From: a virus
Taxonomy: Duplodnaviria > Heunggongvirae > Uroviricota > Caudoviricetes
Reading direction: 5' to 3' (one strand)
Length of the DNA stretch: 14,407 nt
IMG/VR virus record: IMGVR_UViG_2874915312_000003
Coordinates: 1-14,407 of that record
The position numbers and the translations under genes were made by a program. The stretch's first letter is position 1. Every line of letters starts with the position of its first letter. The notes beneath the pieces are model-generated. The model worked only from the letters and a program-made list of their open reading frames with translations, had not been told where the DNA came from and did not search any database. Of the stretch, positions 2,615 to 14,407 are shown piece by piece.

Positions 2615-3265
2615 TTAAATACTCGCTACGTTATACCAGGTGCCATTAATCAGTTTTTGCAGTGGTCGGTAATACACACCGTCAACGTTATCCGCTGAGT
2701 TACGGCCGGGGCTGTAATACATTTCATGGCCATACCGTACATCCTGTACCCCCTCTGTTCGATATTTATAGCGGGCATCGAAGTTTCCGTAATTTAACGG
2801 AATTACCTGTCCGTTAACAGTGAACACTATGCTGTTATCCGGGTTTCTCTGGCTGAAAAAATGCCAGCCTGAATCATCGCCAAGCTCTGCAACAACAGGC
2901 CTGGATGGATTACCCCACAAATAAAACGCTGCATTTTTCGTGGAGTTGTTGGCGCTGGATAACGTGAATTTTCTGACAGTTCCGGCCTGAATATTCTTAA
3001 AAGCAATAGCCACTCCATTCTGAAAGCGGAATACACGCTGACTATTAGCATAAACATCCAGAATACCGTCTCCATTCTGTTTAAATCCGGTGTCATTATC
3101 ACCAAGAACAATTGAATTCCCCCCCAGGGCGTTCTGAACGCCGATACCCAGCGCACCATTGACCTGCGAACCACCGCCAACAGACACTTTATGCGACATG
3201 GATATTTCACCCGTCCGCAAATTAATGGTGAACGGGCGCAGGGGACCAATATCGCCATTATTCAC
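2615..3265 (-). pseudogene. Tail fibre C-terminal (receptor-binding) domain remnant; 5' portion missing
   Basis: 216-codon ORF with Gly-rich tip-like sequence (HKVSVGGGSQVNGALGIGV...), immediately followed by tfa. Begins with GTG overlapping the holin stop and has no fibre N-terminal domain. First in-frame ATG is at 3199. Confidence 0.45.
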
Positions 3266-3473
3266 CTCTCGCAGCCTTACGCTTATCTTCTCTTATTTTG
3301 AAATACAGATTCGTCAGATAAGTCAGAAGCCCCAGAAGCAGACTTCCCAGCACACCAATCGCAGCCCACTGTGATGGACTGACCTGATCCAACCACTGCA
3401 AAAACCAGTAGCCGGCACTGCCGGCGGCGGTGCCGTAGGCAATGCCCGTTGAAATTTTGTCCATGGATTTCAT
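3258..3473 (-). CDS. Holin, lambdoid prophage EssD/EssQ type (71 aa)
   Basis: MKSMDK...[32 protein letters not shown] closely matches K-12 prophage holin EssD as remembered. SD GGAGGTGA sits upstream of the ATG. Hydrophobic core with a charged C-tail. Confidence 0.7.
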
Positions 3474-3633
3474 AGCCTCACCTCCGCAAATAACGGATGG
3501 CGTAGTTTTACACTGAGAAATGAAAGGGATTTGAAAAGAAAAAAACGCAAAAGCGGGCGAAACGATATATACAGTAAGGAAAGCACTCTATCCAACAAAC
3601 CACCCACAGTTAATCGGAATAAAAGCAGAGTGC

Positions 3634-3706
3634 TTATGAATGATCGCACGCCCGAAGGTTAGTATTTCTGCACAGCAATTTTGCAAAAAAAGGCGATCAT
3701 TCATAA
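3634..3706. repeat. Perfect 14-bp inverted repeat, TTATGAATGATCGC (3634-3647) / GCGATCATTCATAA (3693-3706), 45-nt spacer
   Basis: Read directly from sequence, in the tRNA-holin intergenic region. Confidence 0.8.
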
Positions 3707-3713
3707 CTTAAAC

Positions 3714-3759
3714 GTCTTTCAGTCACTCCGGGATTTCCCATCATCGCAGACTGAAAGAC
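3714..3759. repeat. Perfect 11-bp inverted repeat, GTCTTTCAGTC (3714-3724) / GACTGAAAGAC (3749-3759), 24-nt spacer
   Basis: Read directly from sequence, 7 nt beyond the 3' end of tRNA-Gly on the transcribed strand. Confidence 0.8.
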
Positions 3760-3765
3760 TCTGAC

Positions 3766-3840
<75 letters not shown>

Positions 3841-3843
3841 ATA

Positions 3844-3919
<76 letters not shown>

Positions 3920-3921
3920 GC

Positions 3922-3998
3922 TGGCCCACCACCGAGGACTCGAACCTCGCACCGTCAACTTAGAAGGTTGATGCTCTATCCGGATGAGCTAGTGGTGG
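3922..3998 (-). tRNA. tRNA-Arg (anticodon UCU, reads AGA)
   Basis: Reverse complement CCACCACTAGCTCATCCGGATAGAGCATCAACCTTCTAAGTTGACGGTGCGAGGTTCGAGTCCTCGGTGGTGGGCCA. Perfect 7-bp acceptor stem, anticodon loop CTTCTAA, T-loop TTCGAGT. Confidence 0.75.
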
Positions 3999-3999
3999 T

Positions 4000-4076
4000 T
4001 GGTGGCCCTTGCTGGACTTGAACCAGCGACCTGGCGATTATGAGTCGCTCGCTCTGACCAACTGAGCTAAAGGGCC
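4000..4076 (-). tRNA. tRNA with CAU anticodon, ileX/ileY-like (Ile2/lysidine type more likely than Met)
   Basis: Reverse complement GGCCCTTTAGCTCAGTTGGTCAGAGCGAGCGACTCATAATCGCCAGGTCGCTGGTTCAAGTCCAGCAAGGGCCACCA. Resembles E. coli tRNA-Ile2 as remembered. Ile versus Met identity cannot be settled by eye. Confidence 0.7.
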
Positions 4077-4085
4077 GGAGGCAGA

Positions 4086-4114
4086 ATAATAACCATATGT
4101 CATCACATCTGCAA
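4086..4114 (-). promoter_or_regulatory. Candidate sigma70 promoter for the tRNA cluster (-35 TTGCAG, 17-bp spacer, -10 TATTAT)
   Basis: Minus-strand hexamers at 4114..4109 and 4091..4086. The -10 ends about 10 nt upstream of the tRNA 5' end at 4076. Confidence 0.35.
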
Positions 4115-4160
4115 ACTCATCTGACCACCAGCGCGTTTAACGCCCTGTGCCATTTTTCAG

Positions 4161-4188
4161 GCACAAAAAAACCCGCATAAAGCGGGTT
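4161..4188 (-). terminator. Rho-independent terminator (minus strand)
   Basis: Minus strand reads AACCCGC-TTTAT-GCGGGTT followed by TTTTTTTGTG. Lies about 100 nt downstream of the antirepressor stop. Confidence 0.55.
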
Positions 4189-4284
4189 CTTTCAAGTGTC
4201 CATGTCTGCTATTCGCCTCGCGATACAGCTTTGCGGAGCTTACCGGAATTGAAGCAGTTTATGTGCAAAAATGCAAGAACTTTT

Positions 4285-4794
4285 TTAAAGCTGCATCAAC
4301 CTTTCCACCAGTTTATCTCTGCGAACAACAAACCAACCATTGGCTCTCGCCAGTTCCAGCCATGACTCAAGGGAAATAACAATATCATCATCCCGTAACT
4401 GAATTGTGGAAACAGTGACACCGCCTCTCTGATAACAGAGAACTCGCGTGTCGTAACTTTTCTGGCATGAAACTGGCGTTGACGGATCCTTTTGACTGAA
4501 ATAGCAGTCTTCCAGTTTTTCGAACACATCCCACGCCTGATCGGTTTCGAGCATTTTGGCGTGGCGTGCTGCGCCTCGTTCTGTCCAGAGGATGAGGGAG
4601 CGGGCTTTGGGTGAAACTGGATTTTGTGAGTAGTTTAAAGCGACCCGCAATTCTTTAAGGTCATTACCAACAACTTTGAAAAAGTGTTTCCCTTCAACGA
4701 AGCGTACTTTGTTCTCATGATGATTCTGGCGAATACGCACCGGCTCAGTGCCGTAAAGCTGCGCCAAAAGTTCGGTGGTAATAACAGGAATCTG
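4285..4794 (-). pseudogene. ORF6N-domain phage antirepressor-like protein, 3' part (interrupted by IS600)
   Basis: Translation ...IPVITTELLAQLYGTEPVRIRQNHHENKVRFVEGKHFFKVVGNDLKELR...SPKARSLILWTERGAARHAKMLETDQAWDVFEKLEDCYF matches the ORF6N consensus as remembered. The first 47 codons of track ORF 4285..4932 are read out of IS600 and are artefactual. Confidence 0.65.
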
Positions 4795-4837
4795 TGAGGT
4801 GTACTGGCAATAGCGGACACTACCATTTGTTCTTTTT

Positions 4838-5656
4838 TTAAGCAGCCATCTGATGATATTTTTCCCTGAAGGCTGCCAGGGAGATATTCCCCAGACGAGA
4901 GTGACGACGCTGACGATTGTAGAAAATCTCAATGTATTCCCGTATTACTGAGATGGCTTCATCCCGGTTATTAAAACGATAGTGGCTCAGGCTCTCATTT
5001 TTCAGCGTTCCCCAGAAGCTTTCCATCGGAGCGTTGTCGTAACAGTTACCTTTACGCGACATTGATGTTTTCAGACCAAACTGCTCCTGTATGACCCGGT
5101 AATCGTATGCGCAGTACTGTGAACCTCGATCAGAGTGGTGGATTAGCCCGGCAGGTGGGCGCTGGCTCCTGAGCGCCATAAACAGGGCTTTACCTGTCAG
5201 CTCTTTTGTCATGCGCTCTCCCATGGCGTAGCCGACAATTTCGCACGTATAAACATCTTTGATGCCAGCGAGGTACAACCATCCCTCCTGTGTGGCAACA
5301 TACGTCAGGTCCGCCACCCAGACCTGATTTGGTGCTGTAGGAGCGAACGTCTGGTTCAGCAGATTTGGCGCAACTGGCAGATTGTGGTTCGGGTTCGTAG
5401 TCGCTCTGAACTTGCGTTTCTGCTTACAGCGTAGCCTTAGCTCCTTACAAAGACGTGCCAGTCGGTCACGACCAACGATGATGCCATTCTCTGCCAGCTC
5501 CGTCTGGAGCCGCCGGGTTCCATATGTTTCGCGAGTGCGGATATGTGCCACCTTAATCTCCAGTTTTAGCCGCTCATCACTTTGTTTTCTGTCTGAGGGT
5601 TCATGCTGTACCCAGTTGTAATAACCGCTCCTGGATACACCAAATACCTGACACAT
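4838..5656 (-). CDS. IS600 orfB (DDE transposase catalytic part, expressed as OrfAB by -1 frameshift)
   Basis: 272-aa ORF with IS3-family integrase-core motifs (WVADLTYV...HSDRGSQY...NAPMESFWGTLK). Confidence 0.8.
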   Translation of the reverse strand: MCQVFGVSRSGYYNWVQHEPSDRKQSDERLKLEIKVAHIRTRETYGTRRLQTELAENGIIVGRDRLARLCKELRLRCKQKRKFRATTNPNHNLPVAPNLLNQTFAPTAPNQVWVADLTYVATQEGWLYLAGIKDVYTCEIVGYAMGERMTKELTGKALFMALRSQRPPAGLIHHSDRGSQYCAYDYRVIQEQFGLKTSMSRKGNCYDNAPMESFWGTLKNESLSHYRFNNRDEAISVIREYIEIFYNRQRRHSRLGNISLAAFREKYHQMAA

Positions 5657-5691
5657 CGCTTCAATGGGAAATTGTTGTCGCCATTGTTCGA

Positions 5692-5994
5692 TTAACGCGT
5701 ATTTTTCAGCGACTCCTGTGCAAAATACGCTGTTGCTTTTTTTAATATATCTCGCTCAAGGCGAGCTTCATTTAACGCCTTACGCAGTTGCAGAATTTCA
5801 GATTCCAGTTCAGCCACCGTGCGGGAACCAGGAGTACCGAGCCCTTTTCTGGCGGCGGTAACCCATTGTCCTAAAGTGCCTTCAGGAAGAGATAATCGGG
5901 AAGCGCCTTCACTGATCGAAAGTTGATTTTCAAGAACCGTTCTGACAGCTTCGGCTTTGAACTCTTTAGAGTAACGTTGGGTTTTTCTGCTCAT
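5692..5994 (-). CDS. IS600 orfA (helix-turn-helix / leucine-zipper transposase N-terminal part)
   Basis: 100-aa ORF starting 64 nt from the IS end, with a coiled-coil ELESEILQLRKALNEARLERDILKKA typical of IS3-family OrfA. Confidence 0.8.
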   Translation of the reverse strand: MSRKTQRYSKEFKAEAVRTVLENQLSISEGASRLSLPEGTLGQWVTAARKGLGTPGSRTVAELESEILQLRKALNEARLERDILKKATAYFAQESLKNTR

Positions 5995-6058
5995 TATTAG
6001 CTCCTTCTGATGCCATTCTATTTCAGGAAGGAGTGTCCGTTAAACTCAGGCTACCTCA

Positions 6059-6109
6059 CTGGTTATGGGTGATCGGGGAGAGAGTTTCAACAGAGATTTG
6101 AGTGGTCAT
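6059..6109 (-). pseudogene. ORF6N antirepressor-like gene, 5' part (MTTQISVETLSPITHNQ)
   Basis: Frame continues exactly across the IS600 insertion once the IS and one CTG copy are removed (...THNQ|IPVITT...). The ATG at 6109 has GGAG 9 nt upstream. Confidence 0.5.
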
Positions 6110-6272
6110 AACGATAACTCCGTACATTTGGAAATTATCGCCACCGACGACGCCAATCGAACTGGTGGCGAACTGTGCAGGGTTGGCGTAACCGGGTACG
6201 GAAACCGGCGAGCCTTTCGGCTCCCCCACACAGCCCGCCATAAATCGCGAATGTGACTGTGCAAACGATATG

Positions 6273-6294
6273 AAAAAAGACGCGGGCGCGTCTC
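6273..6294 (-). terminator. Candidate tR'-like intrinsic terminator
   Basis: Minus strand reads GACGC-GCCC-GCGTC followed by TTTTTT, about 55-75 nt downstream of the candidate late promoter. Confidence 0.4.
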
Positions 6295-6355
6295 ATATCG
6301 CTCCGTAAACATCCGGGACGCCAATCCCGACGCCAGATTTTGCTGGCGCGTGAGG

Positions 6356-6385
6356 AATATAGCCCCGGATAACAGATTGAGTCAA
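6356..6385 (-). promoter_or_regulatory. Candidate late promoter pR' (-35 TTGACT, 18-bp spacer, -10 TATATT)
   Basis: The -35 hexamer at 6385..6380 overlaps the Q stop codon (TGA at 6384..6382). The -10 is at 6361..6356. Lambdoid pR' sits immediately after Q. Confidence 0.5.
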
Positions 6386-6936
6386 CAAACGGTTTTTAGA
6401 TCCCCGGAAGAGAATGCATCACGCATCGGTAGATAGAGCATATATTCAGCAAGATTTAGCCATACATCTACCCGACTGCAGCACGTCCGGAAACACCACT
6501 CAGGGTGTGCGTCATTCAGCAATTCAGCCATTTTACGCTTAGTCATCCCCCGCCCTTCATACCGTTGCCGGAGGACACTAATCAATCCAGGATGCTCTGC
6601 CAGCACCTCACTTATGACTCTATCAATACATAACGCCTCTGCATCAGTACAATGCGCCAGCCAGGTCTTTTGCTTGCCATTGATCATCTCTCGCAAAAAC
6701 GCTTCCAGCTCAGGTTTCTCTATTCCCGCTTTTTTCATCCTGCGCAGGGCTTCATTGACGGCTGTTTTCGTCAATTTTTTGGATGCCAGCAACTGGTTAA
6801 ACATATTTCCCGCCTTACCGCCGCCAATATACGACCAGCGCCCCCACATGCGCAGTTTTCCCTGAATCCAGACACTTTCCAGCGTGGTGAGACGAAGGTG
6901 TTCCCCGCTTTTGCCTGTATTTGTTGGGTAAATCAT
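6382..6936 (-). CDS. Late-gene antitermination protein Q (Phage_antitermQ-like)
   Basis: Start taken at the internal ATG 6936 (MIYPTNTGKSGEH...), which has SD AAGGAAGG and overlaps the upstream stop as ATGA. Motif LRMWGRWSYIGGG resembles the W-G-x-W segment of Q21/QuuD-type proteins as remembered. Candidate pR'/tR' lie immediately downstream. Confidence 0.6.
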   Translation of the reverse strand: MIYPTNTGKSGEHLRLTTLESVWIQGKLRMWGRWSYIGGGKAGNMFNQLLASKKLTKTAVNEALRRMKKAGIEKPELEAFLREMINGKQKTWLAHCTDAEALCIDRVISEVLAEHPGLISVLRQRYEGRGMTKRKMAELLNDAHPEWCFRTCCSRVDVWLNLAEYMLYLPMRDAFSSGDLKTVC

Positions 6937-7223
6937 AAATAACCTTCCTTTCTCCAGATTTCTTGTGTGCGAAAAACACCTTCTGCATGCATCAGGCGTA
7001 ATTCTTCTTTGGTGTAATCGCTGGTTTTTACCCGCCCGTCGATTAAATCGTGGCATGAGCTACAGGCAATCGCTGCCTGCATATCGTGTGGTTTTGTCGC
7101 TGTTCCGCACGTCCCCGCCAGCCTGTAATGCGCCAGCACAGAAGTTTCGGGATTGTGATTGCAGTAGCCAGGGATTCTGACGGTGCACATCTGCCCCCGC
7201 GCCGCTTTACGTAAATCCACCAT
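6933..7223 (-). CDS. Cys-rich nin-region protein (YbcO/DUF1364-like)
   Basis: 96-aa ORF with spaced Cys/His residues (CTVRIPGYCNH...CGTATKPHD...CSSCHD). Start overlaps the upstream stop (TAATG). Family name is from memory. Confidence 0.45.
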   Translation of the reverse strand: MVDLRKAARGQMCTVRIPGYCNHNPETSVLAHYRLAGTCGTATKPHDMQAAIACSSCHDLIDGRVKTSDYTKEELRLMHAEGVFRTQEIWRKEGYL

Positions 7224-7822
7224 TACGCAAACTCCAGTAACTGCGCGGCCACATTTTCGACTTCCTCCGGAGAGGAAAATTTACGGAACAGGATCCAGTT
7301 CCACAGCACATTCAGTACAGATTTATAAACCTGCTGAAACTCGGTTTCGTCCATGTTCGCAAATGCGATAGATTTTGCCCTGCGCCCACGACTACCATCA
7401 GGATAAATATGCTCGGTGTAAAATCCGGCCTGAATGGTTACCCACTCGCGGAAAGCGTCAAACGACTTTAGCAATGCCGTATCCCGGGTTCTGCATGTCG
7501 CAACTGTATTAAGGTATTGCTCTGCGGCATCACTCAGGGCTGGAGTGTGTTCCCGACCTACTGATTCGCACAGGTAATCAACGAAGCCTGATACCAGTTT
7601 TCGTTCGCGAGGCGTGATCGCCCCACCGACCGGAGTCCAGTAATCAAATCCCAGTTGCAGGAGTTTGAAAAAACGCTTGTGGAATGCGTAGTTACGCACA
7701 CGCTTAAAGTCTGCGTGTATCCACTCACCTATTTTGATTTGATGCAAAAAATCGCAACTCTCCGGCGTCGCCGGGAGAAGTAATCCGGAAGAGGTTTGTT
7801 TGACCAGTTGTATATGCGCCAT
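7223..7822 (-). CDS. Lambdoid nin-region protein (DUF1367-like), unknown function
   Basis: 199-aa ORF, translationally coupled to the next gene, located between the Rem-like gene and Q. Confidence 0.45.
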   Translation of the reverse strand: MAHIQLVKQTSSGLLLPATPESCDFLHQIKIGEWIHADFKRVRNYAFHKRFFKLLQLGFDYWTPVGGAITPRERKLVSGFVDYLCESVGREHTPALSDAAEQYLNTVATCRTRDTALLKSFDAFREWVTIQAGFYTEHIYPDGSRGRRAKSIAFANMDETEFQQVYKSVLNVLWNWILFRKFSSPEEVENVAAQLLEFA

Positions 7823-7955
7823 CGTAGTTCTCCGCTGGCGCAGTAGAATGGGTGTTCAGCCCGTTATGTAGTATACCAGAATTAATGCCAATACTAACAG
7901 GGTAATGCTGCCAACTTACTGATTTAGTGTATGATGGTGATTTTAAGGTGCTTGC

Positions 7956-8231
7956 GTGGCTTCCATTTCCATCAGATGTCCTTCCTGCTCCGCTACTGAA
8001 GGCGTGGTGCGTAACGGCAAAAGCACTGCCGGGCATCAGCGCTATCTCTGCTCTCATTGCCGTAAAACATGGCAACTACAGTTCACTTACACCGCCTCTC
8101 AGCCCGGTACGCACCAGAAAATCATTGATATGGCCATGAATGGCGTCGGATGTCGCGCCAGTGCACGCATTATGGGCGTTGGCCTCAACACGGTTTTACG
8201 TCACTTAAAAAACTCAGGCCGCAGTCGGTAA
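7956..8231 (+). CDS. insA: IS1 InsA
   Basis: [40 protein letters not shown]..., 91 aa. Confidence 0.9.
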
Positions 8232-8653
8232 CCTCGCGCATACAACCGGGCAGTGATGTGATTGTCTGCGCTGAAATGGACGAACATTGGGGCTACGTCG
8301 GTGCTAAATCACGTCAGCGCTGGCTGTTTTACGCGTATGACAGGATACGGAGGACGGTTGTGGCGCACGTCTTCGGTGAACGCACTCTGGCCACACTGGA
8401 GCGTCTTCTGAGCCTGCTGTCGGCCTTTGAGGTCGTGGTATGGATGACGGATGGCTGGCCGCTGTATGAATCACGCCTGAAGGGAAAGCTGCACGTTATC
8501 AGCAAGCGTTACACTCAGCGCATTGAGCGACATAATCTGAATCTGAGACAACATCTGGCAAGGCTGGGACGGAAGTCACTGTCGTTCTCAAAATCGGTGG
8601 AGCTGCATGACAAGGTCATCGGGCATTATCTGAACATAAAACACTATCAGTAA
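8150..8653 (+). CDS. insB: IS1 insB reading frame (expressed as InsAB' fusion by -1 frameshift at the A6C motif near 8207)
   Basis: 167-codon ORF overlapping the insA 3' end. TTAAAAAACTC slippery motif present. Confidence 0.85.
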
Positions 8654-8752
8654 GTTGGAGTCATTACCTACTAACAGGATGTTCTGACTCGCAATTCGGT
8701 AATGCTGCCAACTTACTGATTTAGTGTATGATGGTGATTTTAAGGTGCTTGC

Positions 8753-9028
8753 GTGGCTTCCATTTCCATCAGATGTCCTTCCTGCTCCGCTACTGAAGGC
8801 GTGGTGCGTAACGGCAAAAGCACTGCCGGACATCAGCGCTATCTCTGCTCTCATTGCCGTAAAACATGGCAACTACAGTTCACTTACACCGCCTCTCAGC
8901 CCGGTACGCACCAGAAAATCATTGATATGGCCATGAATGGCGTCGGATGTCGCGCCAGTGCACGCATTATGGGCGTTGGCCTCAACAGGGTTTTACGTCA
9001 CTTAAAAAACTCAGGCCGCAGTCGGTAA
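8753..9028 (+). CDS. insA: IS1 InsA (copy 2; T->R substitution relative to copies 1 and 3)
   Basis: GLNRVLRHL versus GLNTVLRHL in the other copies. Confidence 0.9.
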
Positions 9029-9450
9029 CCTCGCGCATACAACCGGGCAGTGATGTGATTGTCTGCGCTGAAATGGACGAACATTGGGGCTACGTCGGTG
9101 CTAAATCACGTCAGCGCTGGCTGTTTTACGCGTATGACAGGATACGGAGGACGGTTGTGGCGCACGTCTTCGGTGAACGCACTCTGGCCACACTGGAGCG
9201 TCTTCTGAGCCTGCTGTCGGCCTTTGAGGTCGTGGTATGGATGACGGATGGCTGTCCGCTGTATGAATCACGCCTGAAGGGAAAGCTGCACGTTATCAGC
9301 AAGCGTTACACTCAGCGCATTGAGCGACATAATCTGAATCTGAGACAACATCTGGCAAGGCTGGGACGGAAGTCACTGTCGTTCTCAAAATCGGTGGAGC
9401 TGCATGACAAGGTCATCGGGCATTATCTGAACATAAAACACTATCAGTAA
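8947..9450 (+). CDS. insB: IS1 insB frame (copy 2; W->C substitution, DGCPLYES versus DGWPLYES)
   Basis: Direct comparison of the three copies within the window. Confidence 0.85.
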
Positions 9451-9698
9451 GTTGGAGTCATTACCCGCAATTCATCCAGCAGTTTATCATTTCCCATAAT
9501 GTCACTTACCCTCATCGGTAAAAAAATTGCCTTTCGACCATTACGATACATTATTGATTTTGGGGTTTCAGGGAAGTAATCCATTTCGACTATAACTGAC
9601 AGGTCATCACGACGTATGACTGCGTATTTGCTACTAAATAGTTTCTTTATTTTTTCCACGATGCCTCCAGGTTTATAAGTACAAACGGTTATATCCAC
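9444..9698 (-). CDS. Rem-like small prophage protein; last 5 native codons replaced by 6 IS1-derived codons
   Basis: GTG start at 9698. Removing both IS1 copies and one copy of each duplication restores an 83-codon ORF ending ...LLDELRVRTSC, with its stop inside the copy-1 target duplication. Position (upstream of Q and nin proteins, downstream of hokD) mirrors rem in K-12 Qin. Identity to Rem is from memory. Confidence 0.5.
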
Positions 9699-9934: not shown

Positions 9935-10090
9935 TTACTCCTCAGGTTCGTAAGCTGTGAAGACAGCGACCTCCGTCTGGCCGGTTCGGATTCGTACCTC
10001 GCAGAGGTCTTTCCTCGTTACCAGTGCCGTCACTATGACGGTTAAACAGATGACGATCAGGGCGATTAACATCGCCTTTTGCTGCTTCAT
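9935..10090 (-). CDS. hokD: Hok/Gef-family type I toxin, HokD (RelF)-like
   Basis: 51-aa MKQQKAMLIALIVICLTVIVTALVTRKDLCEVRIRTGQTEVAVFTAYEPEE matches K-12 HokD as remembered. SD AAGGAG is 8 nt upstream. Track ORF 9935..10147 adds an in-frame 19-codon upstream extension (MSHKCRLASYVPKGKEKQA). Confidence 0.8.
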   Translation of the reverse strand: MKQQKAMLIALIVICLTVIVTALVTRKDLCEVRIRTGQTEVAVFTAYEPEE

Positions 10091-10431
10091 AGCCTGCTTC
10101 TCCTTGCCTTTCGGCACGTAAGAGGCTAACCTACATTTGTGAGACATAGATTGGGCCTCAGATTAATGTTAAGCGTCTTGCAGGACGCGTAATGTTAACT
10201 GGGGCTTTTCTCTGTCTGCCTTACAGTGGCATGCCCGAGGCAGACAGCCTCAAGCACCCGCAGCAATCTTACCGATACCGATAAGAAAACGCTATTTTTT
10301 ATTGCCAGCACCTTCTATCCAGGCTAATTTATCTGCGTCAGAACGGCGCAATGCGCTCGCCTGAGATACGTTTACTTGCCATGGTAACAACAGGTAACGG
10401 CAATTGCTGTTTCTGTTTTGTTTCCTTCAAA

Positions 10432-11933: not shown

Positions 11934-12189
11934 ATCAGCTTTCCTTATACGGATTAATTTTATTGTGCAGTGTGTTGAATGACGCCCATACCACGTCGTT
12001 ATACAATTCAATAACTGGCTCAATTATTTTTCCGATTATCCAGACAAAAATTAGCGGGGATATCGGTGTCATCAACACGATAAACAGAATGAGAAACAGG
12101 AATTCTGTTGTTCTACTCTTTCGCGGATATTTTTGGTAATGCTGCCAACTTACTGATTTAGTGTATGATGGTGATTTTAAGGTGCTTGC

Positions 12190-12465
12190 GTGGCTTCCAT
12201 TTCCATCAGATGTCCTTCCTGCTCCGCTACTGAAGGCGTGGTGCGTAACGGCAAAAGCACTGCCGGACATCAGCGCTATCTCTGCTCTCATTGCCGTAAA
12301 ACATGGCAACTACAGTTCACTTACACCGCCTCTCAGCCCGGTACGCACCAGAAAATCATTGATATGGCCATGAATGGCGTCGGATGTCGCGCCAGTGCAC
12401 GCATTATGGGCGTTGGCCTCAACACGGTTTTACGTCACTTAAAAAACTCAGGCCGCAGTCGGTAA
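12190..12465 (+). CDS. insA: IS1 InsA (copy 3)
   Basis: Protein identical to copy 1 InsA. Confidence 0.9.
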
Positions 12466-12887
12466 CCTCGCGCATACAACCGGGCAGTGATGTGATTGTC
12501 TGCGCTGAAATGGACGAACATTGGGGCTACGTCGGTGCTAAATCACGTCAGCGCTGGCTGTTTTACGCGTATGACAGGATACGGAGGACGGTTGTGGCGC
12601 ACGTCTTCGGTGAACGCACTCTGGCCACACTGGAGCGTCTTCTGAGCCTGCTGTCGGCCTTTGAGGTCGTGGTATGGATGACGGATGGCTGGCCGCTGTA
12701 TGAATCACGCCTGAAGGGAAAGCTGCACGTTATCAGCAAGCGTTACACTCAGCGCATTGAGCGACATAATCTGAATCTGAGACAACATCTGGCAAGGCTG
12801 GGACGGAAGTCACTGTCGTTCTCAAAATCGGTGGAGCTGCATGACAAGGTCATCGGGCATTATCTGAACATAAAACACTATCAGTAA
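12384..12887 (+). CDS. insB: IS1 insB frame (copy 3)
   Basis: Protein identical to copy 1. Confidence 0.85.
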
Positions 12888-13022
12888 GTTGGAGTCATTA
12901 CCGATATTTTTTTCTAAATAATGTAACCATTCATTACCGCCCTTTCGGGCGGTCTCCTGATGATTTGAGGGTGCAGAAATCCCTCCGGTTAGAGATTAAA
13001 TTTTTAACAGTGCTAAATTTAA

Positions 13023-13248
13023 TTATTCAGTTCTGGATTTTGTCGCCCTGCGTATCCGCGCTTTCGCATTACGCTCAATCTGTATCAGCTTTTCTATATT
13101 TCTCCGCCTTTCCTGTTCCTCCTGGCGCAATAGCCTTACATCATCTGCCAGTCTGGTTTCTCTTTTTGCCACAGAGAGCATCCAGTCAAACGGCTCCACA
13201 ACCGCACCGCAGATTTTACAGCAGACCTGACGCTCTTTTTCGTCAACC
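13023..13248 (-). pseudogene. 3' fragment of an unidentified phage gene truncated by IS911 (...CCKICGAVVEPFDWMLSVAKRETRLADDVRLLRQEEQERRRNIEKLIQIERNAKARIRRATKSRTE)
   Basis: Minus-strand frame is open from the IS911 boundary to a TAA at 13025..13023. Charged, coiled-coil-like tail. No start codon inside the fragment. Confidence 0.25.
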
Positions 13249-13256
13249 TGAAGTGG

Positions 13257-14407
<1,151 letters not shown>

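Follow-up and report, generated by a model that had tools for sequence, protein, structure and literature searches.

The window, the whole 14,407-nt stretch of viral DNA that was analysed (IMG/VR record IMGVR_UViG_2874915312_000003), contains a gene for an ORF6N-type protein that is interrupted by an IS600 element of the IS3 family. The element occupies positions 4795..6058 (1264 bp) and, like all genes and RNA features described below, lies on the minus strand. Along its entire length (1264/1264 bp aligned) it shares 99.8% identity with E. coli copies annotated as 'IS3-like element IS600 family transposase'. The terminal inverted repeats are imperfect and of the TG...CA type, and both ends open with TGAGGT. 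Both reading frames of the element are intact and co-oriented with the target gene: orfA (5994-5692, 100 aa) harbors HTH_Tnp_1 (PF01527), and orfB (5656-4838, 272 aa) harbors rve (PF00665) together with PF13276 and matches NF033516 of the IS3 family with 328.7 bits. Near 5745-5735, inside the overlap of orfA and orfB, an A7G frameshift-type motif, TTAAAAAAAGC, occurs as a candidate slippery site.

IS600 is flanked by a 3-bp target-site duplication, which reads CTG on the plus strand and CAG in gene sense and is present at 6059-6061 and, as the second copy, at 4792..4794. The 5' fragment of the interrupted gene (6059..6109) comprises codons 1-17 (MTTQISVETLSPITHNQ), codon 17 (CAG) being the copy of the duplication at 6059-6061. 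The 3' fragment (4285..4791) comprises codons 18-185 and the stop codon and includes the bulk of the ORF6N domain followed by a family-specific C-terminal region of about 65 residues. The initial annotation proposed that, once IS600 and a single copy of CTG are taken out, ...SPITHNQ continues in frame into IPVITTELL.... In-silico excision gave precisely this result, an open reading frame of 558 nt encoding 185 aa with its ATG at 6109 and its stop codon at 4285-4287. A longer reading of 229 aa starting at an ATG at 6241 was rejected: RefSeq and most homologues begin at the MTTQ methionine, which is preceded by GGAG at a distance of 8 nt, and the frame further upstream varies among relatives.

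A 3-bp repeat is by itself weak evidence for an insertion, as it occurs by chance with a frequency of 1/64. The split is decisive because an empty-site allele exists and because the same junction is present in independent assemblies. The uninterrupted allele was found in E. coli 300709, where it displays 99.8% nucleotide identity and resides in a matching gene context (DUF1367, YbcO, DUF1133, ORF6N, holin). At its empty site, ...CCCATAACCAG|ATTCCTGTT..., CAG occurs only once. Window positions 6059-7899 and 4163-4794 map to adjoining stretches of the empty-site locus L001 with an overlap of exactly 3 bp, the latter segment corresponding to L001 6049-6680 at 97.0% identity. The gene is whole in 113 complete E. 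coli genomes, and the insertion was absent from all complete E. coli genomes searched with the interrupted locus. By contrast, three complete chromosomes of S. flexneri share the identical junction, as do draft contigs and two contigs from IMG/VR; the allele is, therefore, already public. An exact-junction pattern scan of a one-genome-per-species collection yielded zero matches, which was expected because Shigella is counted under E. coli in that collection. The clean split of the gene by IS600, as put forward in the initial annotation, is thus confirmed by base-perfect junctions, the CTG duplication, and the empty-site allele.

isrK and C4-type RNAs upstream of the ORF6N gene

The region upstream of the gene is formed by a Q-like antiterminator gene and a compact set of RNA elements. 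The Q-like gene (6382..6936) belongs to the DUF1133 family (PF06576, E 8e-108) and has a weak match to PF06530, Phage_antitermQ (26.6 bits). It is located directly upstream of the module in the same position as antQ of Gifsy-1, and its 184-aa equivalent in E. coli 300709 is annotated in RefSeq. A promoter-like site, TTGACT-18 nt-TATATT, at 6356..6385 agrees with the consensus at 10/12 positions and is position-equivalent to PisrK and to the lambdoid PR'. Its -10 region (...CCGGGGCTATATT) is nearly unchanged among 34 related leaders; promoter activity has been demonstrated for the Gifsy-1 counterpart only (PMC4825925). The sRNA isrK was identified at 6349-6273 (Rfam RF01394, 75.6 bits vs. a gathering score of 50, model positions 1-77), and a terminator scan placed an intrinsic terminator with a subsequent U run at 6294-6277. 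Overlapping isrK is a c4-a1b1 target motif at 6362-6310 (RF03163, 52.2 bits vs. a gathering score of 46.7), and complementarity points to candidate C4 target sites b1 at 6324-6318 and a1 at 6307-6302.

A C4-type antisense RNA follows at 6161..6245, where RF01695 matches in full length (1-87) with 77.6 bits vs. a gathering score of 45. This RNA is the equivalent of the STnc1160/orf45 region in Gifsy-1. For RF01695 and RF03163, see also Weinberg et al. 2010 (PMC2864571). The predicted fold (-45.9 kcal/mol) shows the two expected inner hairpins and predicts two exposed segments, loop a' at 6202-6196 and the single-stranded b' at 6189-6183. Candidate downstream target sites are located at 6118..6156, namely b2 (UUGGCGU, 6156-6150) and a2 (GUACGGA, 6125-6119), the latter overlapping the Shine-Dalgarno sequence GGAG (6121-6118) of the ORF6N gene. 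An upstream ORF of 44 codons (6110..6241), the counterpart of Gifsy-1 orf45, overlaps C4; it is stop-less and in frame with the gene, so that together with the 17 N-terminal codons it constitutes a 61-aa ORF at 6241-6056. Among relatives, this upstream ORF begins at a conserved AUG and is variable in length and frame, and the peptide is unconserved: the Gifsy-1 version has 45 codons and an ATGA overlap, and that of E. coli 300709 is 31 codons long. On the far side of the gene, an intrinsic-terminator-like hairpin with U7 is present at 4165..4192 (fold -26.4 kcal/mol, z = -5.2), which ends the transcription unit ahead of the tRNA cluster.

The complementarity between C4 and its sites covaries among related leaders. 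Five types of b' were found, each of which has a perfect 7-8 nt complement at b1 as well as at b2. Across 34 related leaders, 97.9% of b'-b1 and 100% of b'-b2 positions were paired, with 5/7 pairs being compensatory in either case; when the partner was slid by 1-3 columns as a control, 14-44% were paired. For a', about six types occur, with complements of 6-8 nt in both a1 and a2, and a' covaries with a2. Because the a' loops of different types are out of register with one another in the alignment, the a sites were scored by longest complement, and column pair counts were dropped. RNAduplex runs of whole C4 against whole leader segments scored about 1 sd better than shuffles, which is uninformative, as such runs take no account of intramolecular structure. 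They were replaced by complementarity at the level of single sites and by counts of covarying pairs. The a and b specificity types reassort freely.

The arrangement closely resembles isrK-orf45-anrP of Gifsy-1 in Salmonella Typhimurium (Hershko-Shalev et al. 2016, PMC4825925). Common to both is the order of a Q-type gene, promoter, isrK with its terminator, STnc1160/C4 leader, a 185-187-aa ORF6N gene, and tRNA and lysis genes, and the b-site specificity is shared. We found that Gifsy-1 STM2616 directly follows Q and that the stop codon of the 45-codon upstream ORF overlaps its ATG, matching the published description (PMC4825925). In contrast to Gifsy-1 anrP, the gene in the window is interrupted by IS600 and resides in a prophage remnant. 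Further differences concern the Q gene (DUF1133 family in the window vs. Q82-like in Gifsy-1), the a-site specificity (UCCGUAC vs. CGGUGAU), and the upstream ORF, which is stop-less and in frame in the window, whereas that of Gifsy-1 has 45 codons and ends in the ATGA overlap. In the Gifsy-1 model, IsrK activates translation via the upstream ORF orf45 (PMC4825925). This coupling step is not transferable unchanged, because the upstream ORF in the window is in frame without a stop codon and is different again in E. coli.

A second point of comparison is provided by phages P1 and P7, whose immI region consists of the c4 antisense RNA, icd, and ant1/ant2. In these phages, as also stated in the Rfam family descriptions, the C4 RNA controls specifically the antirepressor gene ant. 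As in immI, the antisense RNA in the window would be processed from the leader of its own target transcript, and each of its two exposed segments has a pair of complementary sites, one upstream (a1 b1) and one downstream (a2 b2). The downstream site is likewise positioned at the ribosome-binding site, and the controlled gene would be one that drives induction. In addition, the specificity types differ by concerted change at all three sites, as is the case in P1/P7 heteroimmunity. Unlike immI, the module in the window would control an ORF6N protein that is apparently not of the P1 Ant type, its a1b1 segment has a terminator of its own and would accumulate as an sRNA (isrK), and the module lacks an icd homologue and belongs to a lambdoid late region, where it follows Q.

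Family and predicted role of the restored protein

The restored 185-aa protein was searched for homologues, and an exact letter-for-letter entry (P0002) was obtained from the protein collection, 'MULTISPECIES: ORF6N domain-containing protein [Enterobacteriaceae]', representing 256 contigs. Homologues of similar length (182-203 aa) are numerous, contrary to what would be seen if the reconstruction were spurious. Residues 1-185 align end to end with the 187-position profile of PHROG 2379 (E 3e-94), and ORF6N (PF10543) matches residues 12-97 with 72.9 bits vs. a cut-off of 27.8. At 50% clustering, about 12 clusters (182-203 aa) span the full length of the protein. A characterized relative is AnrP of Gifsy-1 (STM2616), with 57% identity over residues 1-182 by BLASTP (E 7e-66), and tblastn to Gifsy-1 anrP resulted in 56.7% identity across 98% of the query. 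The first 27 residues of both proteins are the same, and residues L10 and I13 of the ORF6N-gene protein are nearly invariant.

When the restored protein was scanned against Pfam, ORF6N was the only domain returned, without P22_AR_C, P22_AR_N, ANT/KilAC, or AntA domains; the expected domains of the controls VT2-Sakai Ant (ORF6N + P22_AR_C) and Roi (ANT) were recognized. No family was assigned by the NCBIfam scan, a sequence search of PDB chains yielded nothing at E <= 1, and the C-terminal 74 residues as sole query retrieved nine fragments of the same gene and nothing else. An AlphaFold2 model based on a 20-sequence alignment had a mean pLDDT of 40 and was unusable.

The label 'antirepressor' used in the initial annotation is reasonable because the protein is homologous to AnrP (PMC4825925) over its full length and because a C4/isrK control region lies upstream of its gene; a resemblance to P22 Ant does not hold, since P22_AR_C is absent. 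Neither the AnrP homology nor the C4/isrK region had been part of that annotation. Expression of AnrP raises antQ/SL2581 mRNA and induces Gifsy-1 (PMC4825925), and the designation of AnrP as 'anti-repressor-like' was drawn from annotation and induction phenotypes (PMC4825925). By analogy, we infer that the intact protein of the window was an antirepressor-like inducer.

It is possible, though on present evidence rather doubtful, that the intact protein is instead a sequence-specific DNA-binding regulator, e.g. an activator of the early or Q operon, or has another role in the late phase, and does not bind a repressor. ORF6N, a predicted DNA-binding module of the KilA-N type, is its only recognized domain, and P22_AR_C, by which the Ant proteins of Stx phages are tied to P22 Ant, is missing (PMC3064807). 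Moreover, most relatives at 50% clustering have only the N-terminal ~120 residues in common and carry C-termini of many kinds, and function may, therefore, depend on the C-terminal module. Among Stx phages, the Ant/AntA proteins (VT2-Sakai Ant, phage 2851 antA, Phi24B Ant; Fogg et al. 2011, PMC3064807) resemble the window protein in the N-terminal ~116-120 residues (ORF6N, ~97% DNA identity). They are 244 aa in length with a P22_AR_C C-terminus, and their genes belong to the nin region and precede Q, whereas the window protein has a different C-terminus without P22_AR_C and its gene is located downstream of Q. The similarity of Stx-phage Ant to P22 Ant lies in the C-terminal 104 residues (PMC3064807). 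However, the induction of Gifsy-1 by expressed AnrP does not depend on isrK (PMC4825925), a phenotype expected for an antirepressor. Also at odds with a DNA-binding regulator, the gene is situated behind a C4 RNA, which in P1/P7 controls ant, and the PHROG families sharing the module are uniformly annotated as anti-repressor, albeit by annotation transfer. The account of the IS insertion is the same for either role; the functional label alone changes.

Predicted loss of the switch output

Taken together, we consider it probable (roughly 85%) that the locus represents an IS600-split gene of a Gifsy-1-like isrK-orf45-anrP switch that follows the logic of immI (c4-icd-ant) and in which the RNA regulators are intact and the protein output is gone. 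The prophage would be lambdoid, of the Shigella type, and heavily decayed; the window would carry the end of its late region, with a self-contained induction switch directly downstream of the Q-like gene. From a single promoter, a short terminated RNA, isrK, would be produced bearing the decoy sites a1 and b1, while read-through of the terminator would give rise to the C4-type antisense RNA and the mRNA for the 185-aa ORF6N protein. Loops a' and b' of C4 are predicted to pair with a1/b1 and also with a2/b2. As a2 is positioned on the Shine-Dalgarno sequence, C4 could thereby keep translation off. By titrating C4 or by remodeling the leader, isrK would probably turn translation on. IS600 transposed into codon 17/18, duplicating CTG, and thereby cut off the remaining protein from its regulated start codon and from its first 17 residues, which are highly conserved. 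The predicted outcome is a pseudogene, with intact RNA regulators and no protein output.

A product could still arise from the 3' part of the gene. The initial annotation had described a 215-aa ORF as a chimera with its first 47 codons derived from the IS. The frame (4285..4932), a mechanical fusion of element and gene, is indeed chimeric and starts at a TTG within IS600, but it contains 46 IS codons followed by CAG, the duplicated target triplet, as codon 47 and then 168 codons of the gene. We regard it as very improbable that this chimera, or a shorter product of the 3' fragment, is expressed from IS600 signals and has kept or gained a function, the gene thus being rewired. The 215-codon frame is open and its TTG is preceded by a weak GGGA 7-10 nt upstream; IS600 is co-oriented, so that read-through transcripts of the transposase would span the fragment, and the allele is found at 98-100% identity throughout S. 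flexneri lineages. This conservation is, however, explained by recent common descent. No ATG occurs among the first ~100 codons of the chimera, and public annotations of the interrupted allele use four different starts, resulting in 215, 186, 168, and 160 aa. The lost residues 1-17 match Gifsy-1 AnrP exactly, including the nearly invariant L10 and I13, and the Pfam domain starts at residue 12 within the lost part. In addition, the C4-controlled ribosome-binding site stays with the 17-codon stub. The surrounding prophage is full of IS elements; genes for lysis, head, and tail are gone from it, and nothing would therefore be left for an inducer to induce.

Mis-joins may occur in a region with so many IS elements (three IS1, IS911, two IS600), but an assembly artefact, or a chance placement of an IS next to two unrelated gene pieces, is effectively refuted by junctions that are exact to the base with a 3-bp duplication, by flanks that abut with a 3-bp overlap in an independent empty-site genome, and by the recurrence of the junction in finished S. 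flexneri chromosomes, draft contigs, and IMG/VR contigs.

A switch inactivated by IS600, our preferred reading, is as an event an ordinary IS-mediated pseudogenisation, a case of gene decay that has already been sequenced. It is identical in kind to the pseudogene-making IS600 insertions of Shigella/EIEC genomes, with which it shares the 1264-bp length, orfA/orfB, the 3-bp duplication, and simple insertion into a coding sequence, and no differing feature was observed. Loss of function of the split gene is the likely consequence. The insertion itself, one more IS600 pseudogene in a decaying Shigella-type prophage, is of little importance. The new point is the identity of the gene, an AnrP homologue behind an intact isrK and a C4-type RNA. 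The analysis unites isrK, the C4 RNA with its a1b1 targets, and the ORF6N 'antirepressors' as one switch similar to P1 immI, which is found after the Q gene in many prophages of E. coli, Shigella, and Salmonella and whose several covarying specificity types are candidate heteroimmunity classes.

A second, independent IS600 insertion in this type of module was detected in the a1 site of isrK (IMG/VR loci L023/L024). Two independent IS600 insertions along with the free reassortment of a and b types could reflect selection on the switch, favoring either the silencing of an AntQ-toxic induction circuit or the diversification of immunity. More speculatively, and with little expectation that it holds, the orphan isrK/C4 pair, which has a defined a/b specificity, could still act in trans, as c4 does in the heteroimmunity of P1 and P7, and block translation of the anrP-type inducer of any lambdoid phage with a matching specificity type, whether that phage resides in the same cell or newly enters it. 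If true, the dead prophage would have retained an immunity determinant based on RNA.

With regard to annotation, the 215-, 186-, 168-, 160-, and 61-aa 'proteins' are pieces of one 185-aa gene, for which a pseudogene label is due. Only one sequence matched the chimera at 100%, a 954-bp contig of assembly GCA_902503095.1, and in public S. flexneri genomes the chimera is labelled 'putative bacteriophage protein'.

Interruption of an ORF6N gene by IS600

A minus-strand reading frame opens with ATG 6109-6107, 8 nt downstream of a GGAG motif, and reads MTTQISVETLSPITHNQ before it ends at a TGA supplied by an inserted element. This element, IS600, occupies 4795-6058 (exactly 1264 bp, minus strand), has imperfect terminal inverted repeats with both ends starting TGAGGT, and is flanked on both sides by the target duplication CTG (4792-4794 and 6059-6061). 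E. coli copies to which RefSeq gives the name 'IS3-like element IS600 family transposase' match the full length of the element at 99.8% identity. It encodes orfA (100 aa, HTH_Tnp_1) and orfB (272 aa, rve; 328.7 bits to the NCBIfam IS3-family transposase), both on the minus strand like the interrupted gene. In-silico deletion of IS600 and one CTG resulted in a 558-nt frame of 185 codons with its stop at 4287-4285, bearing out the in-frame rejoining to 185 aa proposed in the initial annotation. The 215-aa ORF at 4932-4285 (minus strand, TTG start) is indeed a chimera, as had been suggested; however, its IS-derived part comprises 46 rather than 47 codons and is followed by the duplicated CAG and gene codons 18-185.

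The restored 185-aa protein clearly has homologues of similar length. The protein collection contains it letter for letter under the title 'MULTISPECIES: ORF6N domain-containing protein [Enterobacteriaceae]' (256 contigs), and it matches Pfam ORF6N at residues 12-97 (72.9 bits), and is matched end to end by PHROG 2379. Among 2157 related clusters obtained at 50% clustering, about a dozen are full-length clusters of 182-203 aa, while most others have only the N-terminal ~120 residues in common and are fused to different C-termini, a pattern that corresponds to the domain shuffling already known for this protein network (PMC10111431). Searches with the C-terminal module yielded no informative relatives, and the structure model of the restored protein was poor (pLDDT 40).

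The uninterrupted allele also exists. Copies covering at least 80% of the gene are present in 113 complete E. coli genomes, the best being 99.8% identical. In E. coli 300709, a 558-nt CDS has the same start as the restored gene, and the order DUF1367, YbcO-like, DUF1133/Q-like, ORF6N and holin corresponds to the context in the window. Positions 6059-7899 and 4163-4794 map adjacent to each other in this locus with a 3-bp overlap, and the empty site reads ...AACCAG/ATTCCT... with a single CAG.

This insertion was absent from all complete E. coli genomes searched, and the exact junction pattern had no match in species-representative genomes. Finished chromosomes of Shigella flexneri share the junction in three cases (CP007037, CP020339 and CP001383), all collinear over window 3766-8697 with identities of 99.3-99.4%; draft contigs and two IMG/VR contigs also have it. 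Only a 954-bp contig of GCA_902503095.1 displayed 100% identity to the chimera of the window. The window thus probably derives from a Shigella-type genome that is closely similar to these S. flexneri strains without matching them exactly. The interrupted allele is thus already known from public S. flexneri genomes, where its fragments are annotated as a 'putative bacteriophage protein' of 215 aa, as 'ORF6N domain-containing proteins' of 186, 168 and 160 aa, and as a 61-aa upstream ORF that consists of 44 upstream in-frame codons and the 17-codon stub of the gene. Such scattered start choices are typical of a pseudogene, and since several 'proteins' at the locus are pieces of a single pseudogene, the result is of practical value for annotation. 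The split gene is a correct, cleanly demonstrable and ordinary finding: IS600, the ORF6N/AnrP-type gene, isrK and C4 are all of known kinds, and Rfam already lists both RNAs. Of greater interest is a by-product of the analysis: the ORF6N gene probably forms one switch with isrK, the a1b1 motif and C4.

C4 and its target sites in the leader

An Rfam scan from the Q-like gene to the start codon returned three families above gathering scores, all on the strand of the gene (minus): the 'a1, b1 targets of C4' motif (6362-6310, 52.2 bits), isrK (6349-6273, 75.6 bits) and a full-length C4 antisense RNA (6245-6161, 77.6 bits). At its end, the Q-like gene overlaps a promoter-like site (TTGACT, 18 nt, TATATT; 6385-6356), an intrinsic terminator of isrK is predicted at 6294-6277, and a strong terminator hairpin is located at about 4192-4165. 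The C4 hairpin loop carries a' (UCCGUAC, 6202-6196), complementary to a1 in isrK (UACGGA, 6307-6302) and to a2 downstream of C4 (GUACGGA, 6125-6119), the latter overlapping the Shine-Dalgarno GGAG at 6121-6118. Likewise, the single-stranded C4 segment b' (ACGCCAA, 6189-6183) is complementary to b1 in isrK (UUGGCGU, 6324-6318) and b2 downstream of C4 (UUGGCGU, 6156-6150).

This complementarity is maintained by covariation in related leaders. Eighty related loci were fetched from viral contigs, and 34 distinct leaders were aligned. Five b' types occurred, each with perfect 7-8-nt complements at b1 and b2; in one of them, b', b1 and b2 all carry a 1-nt insertion. The a' loops fell into about six types, each of which matched its own a1 and a2. 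Pairing amounted to 97.9% for b'-b1 and 100% for b'-b2, with changes on both sides in five of seven pairs in either case. When the partner was slid by 1-3 columns as a control, only 14-44% of cells paired, and no shuffle reached the observed covariation score. Whole-sequence duplex energies were uninformative for C4/leader pairing.

The 34 leaders (window 6110-6400) contain 14 different a/b combinations, drawn from at least five b types and about six a types, as if the a and b determinants at the C4, isrK and ribosome-binding sites were reassorting. These types could define heteroimmunity classes among lambdoid prophages.

In P1 and P7 immI, c4 RNA is processed from the leader of the ant operon, and expression is blocked through a2/b2. 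Judged from this established knowledge and from the Rfam families of C4 and its target motif (Weinberg et al. 2010, PMC2864571), the window module has the immI architecture. In the study of isrK in Gifsy-1, isrK/STnc1160 was likened to P4 seqA/CI and not to P1 c4 (PMC4825925). Terminator read-through past isrK would yield C4 RNA and the mRNA of the gene, C4 would repress the gene, isrK would relieve this repression, and the hairpin at about 4192-4165 would close the transcription unit before the tRNA cluster. We propose a single immI-like switch, with reassorting specificity types, located after Q in many enterobacterial prophages.

The uORF overlapping C4 (window 6110-6241) retains its AUG but varies in frame and length: it has 45 codons in Gifsy-1, where our reconstruction shows two AUGs spaced by 13 nt and a stop that overlaps the ATG, and 31 in E. 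coli 300709, and is in frame and stop-less in the window. For some homologues, gene callers place the start further upstream so that the uORF is included, and the predicted products then reach 229-265 aa. Constraint at this overlap seems to fall on the RNA rather than the peptide; as the uORF is not conserved as a peptide, the Gifsy-1 coupling step is not simply transferable.

Relation to AnrP and effect of the insertion

Derivation of the name 'antirepressor' from similarity to P22 Ant was rejected. Stx-phage Ant/AntA shares only the N-terminal ORF6N module with the restored protein (about 97% nucleotide identity over the first ~350 nt), and the likeness of such proteins to P22 Ant resides in their C-terminal 104 residues (PMC3064807). 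VT2-Sakai Ant combines ORF6N with P22_AR_C, whereas a Pfam scan did not find the latter domain in the restored protein, and this route therefore fails.

isrK has been characterised in the Gifsy-1 prophage of Salmonella, in which AnrP expression leads to more antQ-operon mRNA and to Gifsy-1 induction (PMC4825925). In the Gifsy-1 record, the gene following Q and an isrK-like leader is STM2616, whose 564 nt equal the size deleted in that study. STM2616 and the restored protein are 57% identical over the full length (E 7e-66) and identical in the first 27 residues. The split gene is therefore an anrP homologue. The antirepressor label of the initial annotation, lost by way of P22 Ant, thus has indirect experimental backing as a putative function through AnrP homology, and the isrK/C4 leader also speaks for it.

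IS600 is inserted after codon 17, leaving the regulated ribosome-binding site with the 17-codon stub. The residues cut off (1-17) are identical in Gifsy-1 AnrP, some being nearly invariant, and the Pfam ORF6N domain begins at residue 12. No ATG start occurs in the 3' fragment for about 100 codons. Most likely, the insertion abolished gene function. An S21-type holin (3473-3258, minus strand) abuts a tail-fibre remnant, so that the prophage lacks the head and tail genes and the remainder of the lysis cassette; it carries three IS1 copies, the end of a second IS600 and a remnant of IS911. Since the surrounding prophage is a remnant, neutral decay is the default reading. Silencing could also bring an advantage, given the toxicity that AntQ shows in Salmonella upon induction via AnrP (PMC4825925). 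Compatible with such an advantage, without proving it, is a second, independent IS600 insertion in another prophage (IMG/VR contigs L023, 680-1006, and L024, 1-283). There, IS600 is oppositely oriented and interrupts isrK within its a1 site, 195 nt before the anrP start, so that C4 and the gene are cut off from the promoter and the 5' portion of isrK.

Further elements of the window and its relatives

The three IS1 copies (7901-8668, 8698-9465 and 12135-12902) have their own target duplications, TACTAACAG, CGCAATTC and GATATTTTT, respectively. The first two are co-oriented and separated by just 29 bp, at a place where the S. flexneri relatives have one IS1. At 13243-14407, an IS911-like element (orfA and orfB on the minus strand) lacks its orfA-proximal end, which is cut by the second IS600 terminus starting at 14376 and running off the window; hence, one IS inserted into another. 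A sok RNA (10259-10085, minus strand; RF01794, 118 bits) and a Hok-like ORF of 70 aa (10147-9935, minus strand) constitute a hok/sok-type toxin-antitoxin pair at 9935-10259.

The anrP terminator and the holin are separated by four phage-borne tRNA genes (Met-CAT, Arg-TCT, Thr-TGT and Gly-TCC; 3766-4076) with a promoter-like site of their own (4115-4086, minus strand); in Stx phages, the corresponding position is taken by tRNAs and stx. Beside tRNA-Gly, S. flexneri chromosomes contain a stretch of about 5.8 kb (L003, one of the relative loci, 11167-16961) that includes further IS elements and a tyrosine integrase of 534 aa; in its place, the window (2710-3765) has the S21-type holin fused to the tail-fibre remnant. 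The difference reflects either a deletion in one lineage or, in the other, integration of an island next to the prophage tRNA cluster. Finally, PP818812.1 ('Actinobacillus phage vB_Apl-pPE4') contains an E. coli-type hok, DUF1367, YbcO, DUF1133, isrK/C4 and anrP region at about 93% nucleotide identity, and its recorded host, Actinobacillus pleuropneumoniae, looks doubtful.
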